This document shows positions 6,252 to 19,694 of a DNA stretch of 31,200 bases, in pieces. How positions within the stretch are numbered: position 1 is the stretch's first letter; each line of letters opens with the position of its first letter. The DNA is taken from positions 1 to 31,200 of the forward strand of contig SIAG01000001.1 of NCBI GenBank assembly GCA_009691925.1, written 5' to 3'. The notes beneath the pieces were generated by a model. It had not been told where the DNA came from. It worked only from the letters and a program-made list of their open reading frames with translations, and searched no databases. Origin of the DNA: Planctomycetaceae bacterium (GTDB taxonomy: Bacteria > Planctomycetota > Planctomycetia > Pirellulales > UBA1268). Made by a program: the position numbers and the translations under genes.

Positions 6252-6365
6252 GCACCGCCGGTCAACCCCACGAGGCACCGCCGGTCAACCCCACGAGGCA
6301 CCGCCGGTCAACCCCACGAGGCACCGCCGGTCAACCCCACGAGGCACCGCCGGTCAACCCACGAG
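6252..6365. repeat. 23-bp tandem repeat GCACCGCCGGTCAACCCCACGAG, 4 perfect copies plus 1 with a 1-bp deletion
   Basis: Units at 6252, 6275, 6298, 6321 and 6344-6365. The last unit contains the stop codon and last codons of the convergent transporter gene. Confidence 0.97.
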
Positions 6366-8327
6366 GACCGTTGGTCGCCGCCCCGTGTCGGGCACGGCCT
6401 TCTCGACGAGGTCGTAGACAACGTTCGGCACGTCCCCTTGGCCGAAGAGGAGGAACTCGAGCGCGAGCTTGAGGCTGCTTCCCTGGCTCCAGCCGAAGAC
6501 GACGTCGAGCGGCCGGCCCAACTTGCACATCTCGATGGCGATCTGGGCGATCGTGTGCGACACGCTGACGACGTCGCGAGCGACGATCACGAACCGCTCC
6601 CCCTCCTGCTTGGCGGAGAGGATCGGGGCATTGGCGAACTCGCTGGTGTCACCGTAATGGACCTCGAGAAACACGATCGGCACCTCGGCGGGGATCCGGT
6701 GGCGCTGGCGGATCTCCGCCTCCTTCTCGTCGAGTGAGCGGTGACCGGGCCGGTGCGGCACGAGGACACGGAAGGCCCCCTCGGCGCAGATGTCGGTCCA
6801 CAGCATGCGCGCGGAGTCGTCGGCGAAGCGAAACTCCTTGTGACGCAATTCCTGGCTCCGCCACACACGCGACACGATCGAGATCACGAGCACCGACGCG
6901 ATGAACATCGAGGCGATAATGATCCCGTCGGGGCGCTCGGAGATGTTCGTGATCGTCGTGTAGATGAAGACAAGCGTGATCAGGGCGAAGGCGACGCGCT
7001 TGAGGAGGTGGTGATCAGCCCCCGCCGAGGCCTCGTGCTGCATGTGCACCAGCGACGCGATGCAGGCGCTGGTCATGAGCACGAGCACGCCGGTGGCGTA
7101 GGCGCCCCCCTGCGCGGTGACATCGGCCTTGAAGGCCCATGTCACGAGGAGATTGATAACGGTAAAGGCGATCACGAGGGGGCGGTAAGCCGACGCCCAC
7201 TCCGGCGCCATGCCGTAGCGCGGCAGGTAGCGCGGCACCATGTTGAGGAGGCCGGCCATCGCCGAGGCCCCGGCGAACCAGAGGATAAGGATCGTGGAGA
7301 TGTCGTAGACGGTACCGAAGATCGGGCCGAAGAGCGGGCTGATGTTGAGCGGGCTCTCGCCATGGGCGACGTAGGCGAGTGCCCGGTCGAGGGCCTTCCC
7401 TTTGTAGGTGATCTCGCCGGCGTCGTCCTTCTCCATCCGCAGCTCGTCGGCCGGGATGATCGTGTTGGTGCCGGTGACGAGCGAGGAGCCGATGAGGAAA
7501 AACGACATGATCAGGGCGGCGGTGAGCATGAGCCGGCGCGTGTTGAAGATCCGCGCCTGTTCGTCGTCTGGGTTTTCATCACTGCCGCGGACAAGGTGGA
7601 TCAGGAGCACGCCGGTTTCGAAGCCGGAGAGGCCGAGGGCGAGCTTGGGGAAGATCAACAGCGAGATCCCCAGGGCCACCCACAGGCCGTGGCCCTCGAG
7701 CGGCGCCTCGTGGAGGTGGTAGGTGCCCGAGGCGATCTCCGCAAACCACTGTTGGAGGAGGGCCGGGTGGCTGAGGAGGTGCCACAGCCCGCTGGCGATG
7801 ATCAGGAACGACAGCCCGAGGAAGACGATGACGAGGACCGTGGCGATGCCCACGACCTCGGAGTAGCCCTTGAGGAACATCGCCCCGAGGAGCAGGAGGA
7901 GCACCGCCGCTATGACAATCTGATTGTGGGCCCAGGGGGGGGCGCTCCCTGCGAAGATCGAATTGCTGATGAGGTGCGCGGCGGCGTCGGCGGCGGAGAG
8001 CGTCTTGGTGATCACGAAGTCGGTGGCAGCAAAGCCGATCAGAACGAGGACGCCGATCTTCCCCTTCCAGCCGCTCACGAGCCGCTCGATCATCCCGATT
8101 GAGCCGACGCCGTCGGGGGTCTGGCCGGCGACGTAGCTGTAGACGGGGTAGGCCCCAAAAAGGGTCACGAGGACGAGGACCAGCGTCGCGAGGGGGGCAA
8201 GGGTGCCGGCCCCTTCGAAGGCGATCGACGGTTGGTAGCCGAGGGTACTGAAGTAGTCGACGCCGCACAGACACATGATCAGCCACCACGCGTAGTGGTG
8301 ATGCTGACCGTGGGAAGACTCACTCAC
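6354..8327 (-). CDS. APC-superfamily membrane transporter, KimA/KUP-like, 657 aa
   Basis: About 12 hydrophobic segments plus a soluble C-terminal domain of about 150 aa. Motifs GVDYFSTLGY, TDFVIT, LSGFETG and AYATGV. GTG start. Confidence 0.85.
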   Translation of the reverse strand: MSESSHGQHHHYAWWLIMCLCGVDYFSTLGYQPSIAFEGAGTLAPLATLVLVLVTLFGAYPVYSYVAGQTPDGVGSIGMIERLVSGWKGKIGVLVLIGFAATDFVITKTLSAADAAAHLISNSIFAGSAPPWAHNQIVIAAVLLLLLGAMFLKGYSEVVGIATVLVIVFLGLSFLIIASGLWHLLSHPALLQQWFAEIASGTYHLHEAPLEGHGLWVALGISLLIFPKLALGLSGFETGVLLIHLVRGSDENPDDEQARIFNTRRLMLTAALIMSFFLIGSSLVTGTNTIIPADELRMEKDDAGEITYKGKALDRALAYVAHGESPLNISPLFGPIFGTVYDISTILILWFAGASAMAGLLNMVPRYLPRYGMAPEWASAYRPLVIAFTVINLLVTWAFKADVTAQGGAYATGVLVLMTSACIASLVHMQHEASAGADHHLLKRVAFALITLVFIYTTITNISERPDGIIIASMFIASVLVISIVSRVWRSQELRHKEFRFADDSARMLWTDICAEGAFRVLVPHRPGHRSLDEKEAEIRQRHRIPAEVPIVFLEVHYGDTSEFANAPILSAKQEGERFVIVARDVVSVSHTIAQIAIEMCKLGRPLDVVFGWSQGSSLKLALEFLLFGQGDVPNVVYDLVEKAVPDTGRRPTVLVG

Positions 8328-14377: not shown

Positions 14378-15382
14378 TTGCCCGCCACGATCTATTACGA
14401 CGCTGATGCCGATCTCAAGGCCCTCGATGGGAAGACCATCGCCGTCATCGGCTACGGCAGCCAGGGGCACGCGCAGGCCCAGAATCTCAGGGACAGCGGG
14501 CTGAAGGTCGTCGTCGCCCAGCGGCCGGGTGGTCCGAATTACGATCTCGCCAAGAAGCACGGCTTCGAGCCGATGAGCGTCGAGGATGCCGTCAAGCAGG
14601 CCGACTTGATCAACATCCTCCTCCCCGACGAGGTCGCCGCCGACGTCTACAAGGCGTCGATCCAGCCGCATCTCAAAAAAGGCGCCGTGCTGATGGCCAG
14701 CCACGGCTTCAATTTCCACTTCGGGCAGATCGAGGCCCCCGTCGGTCACGACGTGATGCTCGTCGCCCCGAAGGGCCCGGGGCATCTCGTCCGCAGCGAG
14801 TACGTAAAGGGTGGGGGCGTCCCCTGCCTCATCGCGCTCGGGGCTGGAGCCTCGCCTGAGACCAAGAAGCTCGGGCTGGCTTACGCCAAGGGGATCGGCG
14901 GCACCCGTGGCGGCGTCATCGAGACGACGATCGCGGAGGAGACCGAGACCGACCTGTTCGGTGAGCAGGTCGTTCTCTGTGGCGGTGTCTCGGAGCTCAT
15001 CAAGGCGGGCTTCGACACGCTCGTCGACGCCGGCTACCAGCCGGAGATGGCCTATTTCGAGTGCCTCCACGAGATGAAGCTGATCGTCGACCTCCTCTAC
15101 CAGGGCGGGCTCGAGTACATGCGCTACAGCATCTCGAACACCGCCGAATACGGTGACTACACCCGCGGCAAGCGGATCATCACCGACGAGACCCGTGCGG
15201 AGATGAAGAAGATCCTCGAAGAGATCCGCTCCGGCGAGTTCGCCCGCGACTGGATCCTCGAGAACCGTGGCGGAGCGGCGATGTTCAAGAGCACCCGCCG
15301 CCGCGAGCGCGAGCACAAGCTCACCGAGACCGGCCGCAATCTCCGCAAGATGATGAAGTGGATTGAAGCGAAGGAAGTCTGA
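14378..15382 (+). CDS. ilvC: Ketol-acid reductoisomerase (class I), 334 aa
   Basis: [54 protein letters not shown] and YFECLHE motifs. TTG start with GAGGAG RBS. Confidence 0.98.
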
Positions 15383-15506: not shown

Positions 15507-15782
15507 ATGACGCCAGAAGAACACCAGTCGCGGACGCTCTACGAGCAACTCACCCCGGGGGACCGGGTCGAGGTGATCCATGGCGTTCAGGTTGGGTCGA
15601 CCGCCACCTGGAGCACGACGACGGTGGGAAAGGTGTTGCGGCGCGAGCGTCGTCGGCACGGCCTCCACTTCCGCCGCAACCCCGACGACAAGGTGTTCAG
15701 CGACGTTCTGATCCTCTCCCGTGACGACGGCGAACTCACCACGGTGACGATCGACGAGTACACGCAGCTTCGCAAGCTGTAG
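15507..15782 (+). CDS. Small hypothetical protein, 91 aa, predicted beta-rich
   Basis: GGGAG RBS, ATG 15507, GC3-rich codons like the neighbours. The GDRVEV...TTTVGKV...ERRRHGLHFRRN...TTVTIDEY pattern suggests short beta strands. Confidence 0.75.
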   Translation: MTPEEHQSRTLYEQLTPGDRVEVIHGVQVGSTATWSTTTVGKVLRRERRRHGLHFRRNPDDKVFSDVLILSRDDGELTTVTIDEYTQLRKL

Positions 15783-15995
15783 GAGCAAAGCTCAGGGCCG
15801 GAAGCCCGGGTGACGTGCCAGCGGGCGGATGCCTGCCAAGCGAACACGAGCCGGACGCTCGTGGTTCGCGTGCAATTCCCGAGTACACGCAGCTTCGCAA
15901 GCTGTAGGAGCAAAGCTCAGGGCCGGAAGCCCGGGTGACGTGCCAGCGGGCGGATGCCTGCCAAGAGAACACGAGCCGGACGCTCGTGGTTCGCG
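15755..15995. repeat. 125-bp tandem unit x about 1.9 (REP/BIME-like, multi-hairpin), starting inside the 3' end of the 91-aa gene
   Basis: 15755-15870 versus 15880-15995: 116 bp with one mismatch (C15841/A15966). The unit contains hairpins CAGCTT-CGC-AAGCTG, GGGC-CGGAA-GCCC, GCGGGC-GGAT-GCCTGC and GCGAAC-ACGAGC-CGGAC-GCTCGT-G-GTTCGC. Confidence 0.95.
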
Positions 15996-16030
15996 GTGTG
16001 TGCCCACCACCGCCATCCCCTTGCTGAGGC

Positions 16031-16059
16031 CAGAAGGGCCTTTTGTGGGAGGCCCTCTG
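16031..16059. other. Hairpin just inside the left end of the insert
   Basis: CAGAAGGGCCT-TTTGTGGG-AGGCCCTCTG: a 10-bp stem with one bulge. Confidence 0.4.
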
Positions 16060-16217
16060 AACTACTTCCGCCCCAGTCAGCGATTGGCTCGCTTGATCGC
16101 CCTCGCCTCGGCACGGTGGCGCCTCGTTTCCTGGCGATCGAGTCTCACCGTGTCGCGGGTTGCGGCTCCTTCCTGGTGTCGGGCCGCAGTGATCCGACTG
16201 CATCTTCAGTGCTGTAC

Positions 16218-16943
16218 TCAAGTCTCATCCAAATCCTCTACTTCGATGACCATAACAATGCCCCATAAGCAATCGGTGAGCCTTTCGAGTGGATCCATGC
16301 GCAGAACAGACGTTGCGTTCGGCAACATTACGTGTTGCCATACCGCATGAGTATTGGAAGGACTTACTGACGTCGACTCTGTCATCCCTCCCGTGCCAGA
16401 TAAACCGCCTCCTCGCGGCACAACGACCACAGTTGGCTCTTGAGTGGCGACTGTGTGGCCATATTGCAGCACCATTTGAACCTCCACTCGCGGGTTCCCG
16501 TCATCGCTTGCGGCCAGGGGCTTGAGTGAAATGGAAGCTTCCCACTTAAAGTTTGGTTCATCACCCTGTCCAGTCCGCGTTCGCTTCATCCCGACTCCAG
16601 GACCTGGAATATCCGCTTTTTTAACACCATTTTCCCATACTTGGCAATTGACTCTGACGAGCAATGGCCGATCGGCGGGTTCGACTTCGACACACCCCGC
16701 GGCGATCCAGCCTAGATGAGGCCAGATCCGAATCAGGTCGCCGCGAAAAAGGTGCGGAGTTGGGGATATGACAATGGTGTCATGCGAATCAGGCAAGGCG
16801 ACTTCTCCCGAGCATAACGTTGCAATCGCCTTCGAAAGCACAATCGCCATGAAAAAGACAATCAATCGCGAACAGAGTAGCCCAGCTTTCGCGGTGGGTT
16901 CTCCAGTAAGCGTAATTGAATAAGGCTTGGGAAAAAAAATCAT
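16218..16943 (-). CDS. Orphan hypothetical protein, up to 241 aa, probably exported or membrane-anchored
   Basis: Long ORF in AT-richer DNA. An N-terminal hydrophobic stretch (LLCSRLIVFFMAIVLSKAIATLC) is followed by alternating beta-strand-like segments. Alternative start at ATG 16850. Confidence 0.55.
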   Translation of the reverse strand: MIFFPKPYSITLTGEPTAKAGLLCSRLIVFFMAIVLSKAIATLCSGEVALPDSHDTIVISPTPHLFRGDLIRIWPHLGWIAAGCVEVEPADRPLLVRVNCQVWENGVKKADIPGPGVGMKRTRTGQGDEPNFKWEASISLKPLAASDDGNPRVEVQMVLQYGHTVATQEPTVVVVPRGGGLSGTGGMTESTSVSPSNTHAVWQHVMLPNATSVLRMDPLERLTDCLWGIVMVIEVEDLDET

Positions 16944-17558
16944 AGCAATTACCTTTTTTCTTCTTACGGCCTACGTCGCCGTAGCGGCCGCTCATGAAAA
17001 CGGAACGAAGAACCTCCATCCGCGAATCACTCAGGGAATCCACTGCCCCTACCGCAGAACCCCGCGTGAGTTCCGCGATCCGCTCGCTATCCCCGCTCTC
17101 TGCCCGAGAAAGACTCGCCTTCCCGAAGTGCCGAAACGTCAGGCAATCCGAAACATAGTCACCAATGCGAGCATGGACCAGCAACGGATCGAGAGCCGAA
17201 GCCGAATACAGCCACGGAAAAAACGATTCGGGAGCCCCGCATGCAACCGCTTGACAGCTCAGTAAAGAGATCCTGCGGACAACCCCCTAGGGCCCCTCAG
17301 TGGATCTGTTCTTCCCCAAAAACCCGCGCCGATCCTATTGATCCCGCAATGGCTGTAAAGTGCGGCCAAAGCGGTGTTTTTGTCGGCCCCTCCGCGGCAC
17401 GGGATCGGTCTAAAAAACCCCGACCCGTACTCGCGGCCATGGGGCGAACGGAACACAAGCGACGCGATCGATCACTCGTTATGGACACGGGCGCCGGGCA
17501 CTGCGGCCTGCGGCTGCTCGCCCGGATAGTCGACAGCCAGCCGGATTGCGCAGGTCAC

Positions 17559-17804
17559 CTATGAGCAGCCGCCGCCGCTCGTGTCATGGGACCTCCGATC
17601 TGTCGAGCCTGGCATTAAGCAACAGCTCAAACGCCTGCTCGCCACCCGAAGCAAGCGAAGGACAAGTCGGCCAATCATTTGGCAGATCAGCAGGTCGCCC
17701 CGTGCGAACGTCGCGAGCACGACGGCGGGCCGACGCTTGCTCGACTGAAGATCGGTGAAAGGAAACGGCACGACGACCACGTCGCCACCTACAAATGCCG
17801 CCAC
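17559..17804 (-). pseudogene. Truncated PemK/MazF-family toxin
   Basis: N-terminus GDVVVVPFPFTDLQSSKRRPAVVLA...LLICQ is PemK/MazF-like, but similarity stops at about codon 43 (near 17676) and the remainder is unrecognisable in any frame. The GTG start overlaps the antitoxin stop by 16 nt. Confidence 0.75.
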
Positions 17805-18001
17805 GCATCATCCTCTTCAGGAGTATCCCAATCCGCCGCCCAGGCTGACTCCGCGAGCGGCAGCAGGGCATGCCCGTCCTCGCTCCCATCACTGCCGGCA
17901 CCGCGTGTCCGTAGGTGCCGCAGAAAAGCGAGCACCTCCCGCTGCACACTCTCCGGTGCGTGCTTGAGTTCCTCGATCAGGGATTTGGTTATGGGTGACA
18001 T
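17789..18001 (-). CDS. DUF2281-like putative antitoxin, 70 aa
   Basis: N-terminal LIEELKHAPESVQREVLAFLRHL and acidic C-terminal LAESAWAADWDTPEEDDAWRHL. This pattern is typical of DUF2281 proteins that precede PemK-type toxins. Confidence 0.75.
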   Translation of the reverse strand: MSPITKSLIEELKHAPESVQREVLAFLRHLRTRGAGSDGSEDGHALLPLAESAWAADWDTPEEDDAWRHL

Positions 18002-18010
18002 GCTGCACAA

Positions 18011-18040
18011 AGGATAGGTCGGCCAATGACACTTCGGCAA
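18011..18040 (-). promoter_or_regulatory. Candidate promoter of the toxin-antitoxin operon (short or leaderless transcript)
   Basis: Minus strand TTGCCG (18040-18035), N18, TATCCT (18016-18011). The ATG lies 9 nt after the -10 box and has no SD. Confidence 0.4.
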
Positions 18041-18150
18041 GCGTCGGCCTGGCGGGGCGGATCATGAGGAGCAACATCCGGGACCGGTCGGCCTGGATGC
18101 GACCCGACCGTGGAGGAGCCGAGGCTCGCGACGAACCCGGTGTTGGCTCG

Positions 18151-18320
18151 CGGACGCCCGCCAAGTGAACACGAGCCGGACGCTCGTGGTTGGCGTGCAG
18201 TTCCCGAGTACACGCAGCTGCGGAAGCTGTAATCGCGGCTTCAGGGCCGGAGGCCCGTGTGTCTTGCCAGCGGGCGGATGCCCGCCAAGCGAACACGAGC
18301 CGGACGCTCGTGGTTCGCGT
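18151..18320. repeat. Diverged 124-bp-period copy of the same multi-hairpin unit (about 1.4 units)
   Basis: GAACACGAGCCGGACGCTCGTGGTT at 18167-18191 and 18291-18315. 18205-18319 aligns to 15755-15870 with 8 substitutions plus a replaced 8/9-nt block after the stop codon. Confidence 0.93.
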
Positions 18321-18332
18321 GAAGCCTCAGCC

Positions 18333-19694
18333 TCAGGCCACGCGGGCGATGACGCACTTGAGGTATTCCCCCTCGAGGCAGCTGGCGCTGACGGGGTGAT
18401 CGGGGGCGGCGCCGCGGCATTCGAGCATGGCGATCTGGCGGCCGCTCCGCTGGGCCACCGCGGAGAGCATCTCGAGGAAGTCGTCGCGCGAGACGCTCCC
18501 CGAGCAGGAACAGCTGACGAGGATCCCCCCCGGCTCGAGGAGATCGACCGCGACGCGGTTGATGCGGTGGTAGGCCCGCAGGGCCTCTTCGATGGCGCCG
18601 CGGCTGCGGGCGAACTTCGGCGGATCGAGGATCACCATCCCGAACTTTTCACCGGTGGCGGCCAGGCTGTCGATCCGCGCAAAAGCGTCGGCTGTCTCCA
18701 CCGCGACGTTCGCCGCGCCGTTGAAGTCGGCGTTGGCCCGGGCCAGCGCCGTCGCCTTAGCGCTGCCGTCGACGGCGAGCACGCTCCTGGCCGAGCCGGT
18801 GATGGCGCAGGTGACGGCGAAGCCGCCGGAGTAGCAAAAGAGATCGAGGACGCGGCGGTCGCGGGCGAGGAGCGCGGCGGCACGCCGATTCTCACGCTGG
18901 TCGAGGTAGAAGCCTGTCTTCTGCCCTTCGGTGAGATCGACGCCCCAGGAGAGGCTCCCCTCGCGGATGAAGACCGGCCCTTCCGGAGCGGTGCCGCGGA
19001 TGACCCGGTCGGGGAGATGGAGCCCCTCGAGCTTCGAAAGGCCCCGGTCGGCGCCCCGCAGAAGGATCCCGGCCGGTTTCACCGCCGCTTCGAGAGCGTC
19101 GCAGATCGCGTCGAGGCGACCGGCCATGGCCAGGCCCGTCACCTGAATGGCGAGATGGTCGCCGTAGCGATCGACGACAAGCCCGGAGAGATCATCTCCT
19201 TCGCTGTTGATCAGCCGCGCGGCGCCGGAGCGGTCGTCGAGCCCCAGCGTCCGGCGAAGGGCGATGGCAGCATCGATCCGCGATCGCCAGAAGGGGGCGT
19301 CGAGCGGCACGTCGGATTCAAAGGCGTAGAGCCTGACGCGGAGCCGGCTCGAGGCATTCCAAATCCCGCGGGCGATAAACCGCCCCTCGTGCGTGGCCAG
19401 ATCGACGACATCGCCGTCGGCGGGGGTCCCTTCAACGCGGTCGATGGCGGTGTCGAGGACCCAGGGATGGCGCCCGAAGAACGGTCGCGCCCGCTTCGCC
19501 TTCACCAGCACCGTCGCCGTGGGAAGGCCGGGCTCGTCGGTGGCGCGGGCCGCCGGCGGTGGGGGCGGCGCGGGGGGCCGTTCATCGCGACGCCGCCCCT
19601 CGGGGGCGGAGTCACTCCGATGGCGCTGGTCTTTGGCATCGTGCCGTGGGCCCGATCCCGGCTTCCTGCCGAGGCGGCGCCTGCCTTCAGGCAT
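18333..19694 (-). CDS. rlmI: Class I SAM-dependent rRNA methyltransferase, RlmI (m5C1962) family, about 453 aa
   Basis: PUA-like RHPWV...GDVV, NSEGDDLSGLVVDRY, GQKTGFYLDQRENR, VLDLFCYSGGF, ILDPPKF and EGEYLK motifs. ATG 19694 overlaps the MMPL stop (ATGCCTGA). Confidence 0.85.
   Translation of the reverse strand: MPEGRRRLGRKPGSGPRHDAKDQRHRSDSAPEGRRRDERPPAPPPPPAARATDEPGLPTATVLVKAKRARPFFGRHPWVLDTAIDRVEGTPADGDVVDLATHEGRFIARGIWNASSRLRVRLYAFESDVPLDAPFWRSRIDAAIALRRTLGLDDRSGAARLINSEGDDLSGLVVDRYGDHLAIQVTGLAMAGRLDAICDALEAAVKPAGILLRGADRGLSKLEGLHLPDRVIRGTAPEGPVFIREGSLSWGVDLTEGQKTGFYLDQRENRRAAALLARDRRVLDLFCYSGGFAVTCAITGSARSVLAVDGSAKATALARANADFNGAANVAVETADAFARIDSLAATGEKFGMVILDPPKFARSRGAIEEALRAYHRINRVAVDLLEPGGILVSCSCSGSVSRDDFLEMLSAVAQRSGRQIAMLECRGAAPDHPVSASCLEGEYLKCVIARVA

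Follow-up and report, generated by a model that had tools for sequence, protein, structure and literature searches.

Organization of the Gene X Locus

The window, meaning the whole stretch of 31,200 nucleotides that was analysed, belongs to a 63% complete metagenome-assembled genome (MAG; G000) whose host groups with uncultured freshwater Pirellulales MAGs. The features studied here lie between two gene anchors, ilvC and a convergent rlmI-like gene, in the following order:

14378–15382, + strand: ilvC (ketol-acid reductoisomerase; Pfam KARI_N/KARI_C), left anchor
15507–15782, + strand: gene X, a conserved 91-aa planctomycete protein, function unassigned
15756–15880, + strand: unit 1, 125 bp, fold z -3.1; gene tail (15756–15782), variable spacer (15783–15792), D and H2 hairpins (15793–15835), hairpin R (15836–15872), joint j (15873–15880)
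15881–15995, + strand: unit 2, one nucleotide different from unit 1 and cut at the R end; orphan tail (15881–15907) identical to the gene tail
15996–16192, − strand: IS66 end remnant, 71% to contig C121, whose ORF is a DDE_Tnp_IS66
16218–16943, − strand: 241-aa cargo ORF, function unassigned; L033 has an 84% homologue in this interval
17677–18004, − strand: toxin-antitoxin cargo, a DUF2281-like gene and a PemK/MazF-like gene, the latter truncated in the window; 97–98% to the cargo of L003, L012 and L039
18125–18205, + strand: end of a second dispersed palindrome, M, followed by a copy of hairpin R and joint j (18198–18205), ahead of the distal orphan
18206–18321, + strand: unit 3; distal orphan tail (18206–18232; three silent differences, identical to the gene tail of G012), spacer, D, H2 and R
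18333–19535, − strand: RlmI-like 23S rRNA methyltransferase (below the equivalog cut-off), convergent right anchor

Gene X is present in 34 of 41 relatives, mostly in single copy, and across the order it is tightly linked to ilvC. No Pfam or NCBIfam family was matched by its product, and the Atlas clusters that do match are unnamed Planctomycetota proteins; the nearest named Atlas entry, to be taken as a lead only, is SH3_Rv0428c (score 0.80). The 241-aa cargo ORF had no family match either. The cargo is composite, its two pieces occurring separately in L033 and in L003/L012, and on its left side it is bounded by the R end, not by the tail. No integrase is encoded in the insert, and the three PF00589 matches of the genome all lie on other contigs.

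The palindromic element M measures about 145 bp and is found in about ten full copies in G000 (C267, C156, C35, C313, C93, C281, C203, C50, C193), with a remnant at 18125–18149 of the window; in relatives, hairpin D of the unit is a frequent insertion site for M. At two loci (window position 15996 and G000:C200, about position 6350) a similar GCGAAC...GTTCGC hairpin is followed by an IS66-type end, which suggests that IS66-type ends prefer such hairpins. Unrelated short tandem repeats are also present in the window at 6252–6366 and 1–90 (23-bp units and 18-bp units).

Three Copies of the Gene Tail

An earlier, sequence-only reading of this DNA had drawn attention to two 27-mers, the end of gene X (15756–15782) and a distal copy (18206–18232), which both read EYTQLRKL-stop and differ at three third positions, all silent (CTT/CTG, CGC/CGG and TAG/TAA), the change from CTT to CTG breaking one pair of the tail hairpin. 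Each of these points was confirmed, and the chance of about 1 in 27 that had been assigned to the pattern is if anything conservative: enumeration of all three-base changes showed that 681 of 78975 (0.9%) are entirely silent, while 2.9% is obtained for changes at third positions only. A third copy, identical to the tail of the gene, was found at 15881–15907, bringing the total in the window to three. All three tails form the first 27 nt of units of 124/125 bp, composed of the tail, a spacer and a dispersed multi-hairpin repeat. Each orphan is directly preceded by the same R end and the same 8-nt joint j; had the cargo brought an att arm, such a shared junction would not be expected. The hairpin predicted at this junction gave no significant sign of being maintained in the window (z about 0.5).

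The distal copy is backed by contigs from two other studies (X2 over 17821–18313 with 0 differences, X4 over 17747–18313 with 6 differences; runs with small word shares were left out of the contig comparisons). Since these contigs bridge the cargo and the distal copy, the latter is not an assembly error. In X7, which is of the same species, a joint from 18200 to 18328 skips exactly one unit. The X7 contig that carries the unit has about twice the depth of its flanks, with 8 differences, which suggests that X7 holds two co-changed unit copies, contig depth being weak evidence in itself.

Orphan Tails at Related Loci

Orphan tails are widespread among the relatives. We found 38 of them at 29 related freshwater Pirellulales loci with up to about 20% amino-acid divergence, mostly 95–101 nt past the stop codon, and an adjacent orphan is present at 24 of the 30 loci in which the repeat directly follows gene X. 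These loci share kinship, so that all such counts are descriptive and are not independent trials; row L255, which was misplaced in alignments A1 and A2, was left out. The orphans resemble the gene beside which they lie: 17 of the 38 are identical to the tail of their own gene, and the first orphan differs from its own gene at a median of 1 position in 36 nt, compared with about 8–19 positions for other loci. Among 53 differences between orphan and gene, 34 are silent, 5 lead to residues of other working tails and 14 are non-silent changes not encountered in any gene, some of which abolish the stop. At 64%, the proportion of silent changes matches the 62% measured between working tails of the genus. 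Since the orphans track their own gene and their silent share is like that of working tails, they can be regarded as recent copies of functional alleles, which then drift without coding constraint.

The joint has a similar length and, in most orphans, a CCC end across scattered clades. A single clade of orphan-bearing loci was rejected (p-AU 3.6e-7), a result with which one early gain of the orphan and many losses may also be compatible. Adjacent and distal orphans are nearly alike in mean divergence (1.25 and 1.64, respectively); the window, L198 and L217 are cases in which the distal orphan has diverged further. Two units with no cargo, and nothing else before rlmI, are found at L200 and L203. 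The nearly identical loci L012/L205 and L039 are separated by seven changes within about 35 nt of tail and spacer, those in the tail all being silent; this stretch is a short conversion patch. A genome-wide search for duplicates of gene tails returned 8 matches against 6 in controls, and only the gene X locus was repeat-linked.

Two Alleles of the Gene End

The proposal that the orphan was once a functional gene end was supported. The distal orphan is identical to the gene-attached tail in the congener G012 (L003/L198 and L201), where it is also followed by TCGC, and thus it descends from a functional gene end. Conversely, G012 carries the gene-tail version of the window as an orphan. When the loci of relatives were compared, both tail versions and both downstream blocks were found behind working genes. 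Dispersed repeats bearing the tail but no gene, the finding that was to speak against a gene origin, did not occur among the copies examined away from the gene X locus, nor in the available 63% of the host's own genome.

The distribution of the two alleles points to exchange between congeners. Across the genus the distances of ilvC and gene X are decoupled (r = 0.18). Between the window and its nearest ilvC relative, L201, ilvC differs by 2.7% and gene X by 8.5%, and the gene tail of L201 is the distal orphan of the window; for this comparison it should be considered that L201 shares its MAG with L198 and ends inside the repeat, so that assembly cross-talk is possible. The left units are nearest to L197 and the distal unit is nearest to L198/L202. 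Within the species, X7 shows 27 differences over 380 nt across gene X, and 10 in 1559 nt on the cargo contig. The allele swap appears to involve the whole gene, not just its last 27 nt. On the simplest reading of these sequences, gene X and the left units would have been replaced homologously, and the older allele would have been left beyond the cargo.

A Dispersed Hairpin Repeat That Duplicates Its Flank

The H2-R motif was detected in 75 of 151 genomes of the family, where its copy number reaches 63, and a reversed control gave almost none; its stems vary in sequence yet stay paired. In the genus of the host the repeat is almost confined to the gene X locus. Of 82 dispersed copies, 30 are directly followed by a duplicate of their own upstream flank (controls 0), with periods of 75–233 nt and variable upstream breakpoints. 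One of them (L413, G087:C134) duplicates the last 15 codons of another gene, the 45-nt copy behind the repeat being identical; it is the sole case of a captured tail, and recoded tails of other genes were absent from 17 further gene-adjacent copies. The repeat often ends exactly 3 nt away from the stop of a convergently oriented gene (commonest offset +3, 8/21; L114, L115, L121, L122, L127, L128, L129, L137, L144), which may reflect a target rule or mean that the stop is supplied by the repeat itself.

Neither a constant tag at the stem foot nor a GTAG/CGTC motif was found, and no cognate RAYT/Y1 gene flanked by the repeat was detected in G000, in the genus or in the high-copy genomes G021, G023 and G024. 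In G031, which belongs to the same order, it is the D hairpin only that flanks an IS200-type Y1 gene, and this gene is below the RAYT cut-off. The Y1 gene of the host's own genome has inverted repeats unrelated to the hairpin repeat. It belongs to a set of TIRtron-like genes (L155 in G000:C6, L154, L157, L192, L193, L195) that encode a Y1 transposase of about 240 aa between inverted repeats of about 26 bp, and that sit at differing sites in each genome, often beside toxin-antitoxin genes. An integron attC array was considered and rejected, since the hairpin ends misfit the RYYYAAC/GTTRRRY cores and vary freely, and no integrase lies nearby. No description of the hairpin repeat family or of tail capture was found in the literature covered, which was incomplete.

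Origin of the Recoded Orphan

The recoded orphan is most likely a recombination footprint rather than an integration scar. In our view it is likely that a REPIN-like tandem cluster captured the end of gene X, that its units are kept alike by recombination between them, and that the two-allele mosaic arose by homologous exchange between congeners. The starting point is a dispersed multi-hairpin repeat just 3' of gene X. Like many other copies of this family, it is accompanied by a tandem duplicate of its upstream flank with the repeat end as one breakpoint, and at this locus the duplicated flank reaches nine codons into the gene, giving the observed unit of about 125 bp with tail, spacer, repeat and joint. 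The pairing of the repeat end with the Glu-Phe-Thr codons may, speculatively, fix the junction. Recombination between units, by conversion or by expansion and contraction of the array, would then keep the orphans near the tail of their own gene, in agreement with the pattern seen across loci. The interval is also an insertion hot spot that congeneric species swap by homologous recombination, presumably RecA-dependent, as its mosaicism indicates. Gene X and the two left units carry one allele and the unit right of the cargo carries the other, matching the functional tail of L201, and this distal unit probably records an earlier gene end of the host lineage. The differences are silent because they separate two alleles that were both functional at one time; no coding constraint acts on the orphan itself, and the model requires no integrase. 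This tandem-repeat model is supported by the observation that in relatives the position orthologous to that of the distal orphan, right of the toxin-antitoxin cargo, holds a different orphan or none. Against it stand the recurrence of the joint length and CCC end in scattered clades, the nearly equal divergence of adjacent and distal orphans, and the retention of an orphan at about 80% of repeat-bearing loci. Since neutral arrays would be expected to collapse more often, the arrays may be subject to selection or to a dedicated duplication process.

The sequence-only reading had proposed that incoming foreign DNA supplied the current gene end and displaced the old one, and this part of it did not hold. 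In its explicit form, an integrase would have placed 2.2 kb of foreign DNA into an attB in the gene end, as in the e14/phage 21-icd type. The silent differences, the direct repeats flanking the cargo and the identity of the orphan with a functional allele all speak for such an event, and an orphan that is a former functional tail with silent differences is indeed present. But such an event would also lead one to expect a single tail at uninterrupted loci, whereas two are present at the cargo-free loci L200 and L203; a joint gain and loss of element and orphan, whereas the same cargo lies beside a different orphan in L205/L039 (G008) and beside none in L198 (G012) and in X7; and the tail as attP on a free element, whereas neither tail nor gene was carried by any viral contig in the one collection searched. 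Together with the composite nature of the cargo, its left edge at the R end, the identity of the proximal orphan with the present gene tail and the insert's want of an integrase gene, these findings largely refute the integrase, and we hold it to be very improbable. It is extremely improbable that the distal copy is merely an old neutral duplicate with three mutations silent by chance: orphans elsewhere do drift non-silently, but the calculated probability is below 1% and the 27-mer is exactly the working allele of G012. Hardly any weight can be given to a chimera of two strains joined at the repeat. The MAG is incomplete, repeats break contigs and none of the contigs compared spans the whole stretch; nevertheless, contigs from two other studies bridge the cargo to the distal orphan (X2) and unit 2 to the cargo, and L205/L039 share the same right-hand architecture.

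A different kind of mobility would reside in the unit itself. A trans-acting single-strand (Y1/HUH) nuclease would excise tail and repeat as a mini-cassette and reinsert it at the Glu codon, so that the gene receives a new end and the former one is shifted downstream; the outcome would resemble att-type integration, but the mobile element would be the unit instead of the cargo. The conserved joint would fit such a process, as would a junction that is the same within 1–3 nt in scattered lineages whose R stems differ in sequence, and the complementarity between the repeat end and the tail start (Glu-Phe-Thr codons) could set the breakpoint through fold-back or serve as a guide for a nuclease. 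This pairing is also favoured, although weakly, by codon 2 changes in some orphans (L035, L110), and both the D hairpin beside the IS200-like Y1 gene of G031 and the more diverged distal orphans noted above point in the same direction. Nevertheless, we regard this explanation as unlikely, considering that no repeat-flanked Y1 gene was detected in the genomes named above, that the dispersed duplications have variable upstream breakpoints, that the junction hairpin is unstable in the window and that the orphan right of the cargo itself changed after the arrival of the cargo. Quite doubtful is the wider proposal of a self-targeting mini-cassette that is copied by a putative single-strand nuclease guided by pairing between repeat end and last codons, and that would exchange gene ends harmlessly and form, throughout this Pirellulales family, an array in which toxin-antitoxin genes and other cargo can land without a recombinase.

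Comparison With Known Systems

In E. coli, the integration of e14 or phage 21 in icd leaves a silent-variant orphan gene end downstream of foreign DNA. The gene X locus shares this orphan beyond foreign DNA, and it differs in having no integrase and no attP, three tail copies, cargo-free orphans and an orphan turnover that is independent of the cargo. A silently recoded orphan gene end need not, then, mean site-specific integration, as tandem-repeat dynamics together with interspecies exchange give the same signature, and this is a caution for att-site callers. Replacement flexible islands of aquatic bacteria are exchanged by homologous recombination, and they resemble the gene X interval in their variable cargo between conserved anchors and mosaic flanking genes, the gene X interval being much smaller and built on a repeat array.

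The closest architecture is that of REPIN and REP clusters. Tandem REPIN clusters of Pseudomonas fluorescens SBW25 consist of units with the 5' flank, the repeat and a short unrepeated stretch (PMC3116915), and REP clusters are reiterated together with flanking DNA (PMC3733652). Common to these clusters and to the gene X array are a palindromic repeat and its 5' flank in tandem, a short unrepeated stretch between units, the insertion of other repeats, and ends that often abut stop codons (PMC3116915; PMC3733652). On the other hand, the gene X unit is a head-to-tail chain of three hairpins, and its flank takes in nine codons of a conserved gene and is maintained across the family; as neither a constant tag or GTAG/CGTC motif nor a cognate RAYT was found, the repeat is not assigned to the REP family. 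The BIME-derived intergenic VNTRs of Pseudomonas aeruginosa (ms211, ms214 and others; PMC5977238) are likewise palindromic tandem repeats of variable copy number that serve as targets for IS and other insertions, whereas the parts of that report considered here do not describe a gene-tracking capture of a coding tail. The gene X locus offers a compact example of a coding tail and its non-coding copies evolving in concert throughout a family, and the flank duplication at over a third of the sites examined provides a natural test set for how REP/BIME arrays amplify.
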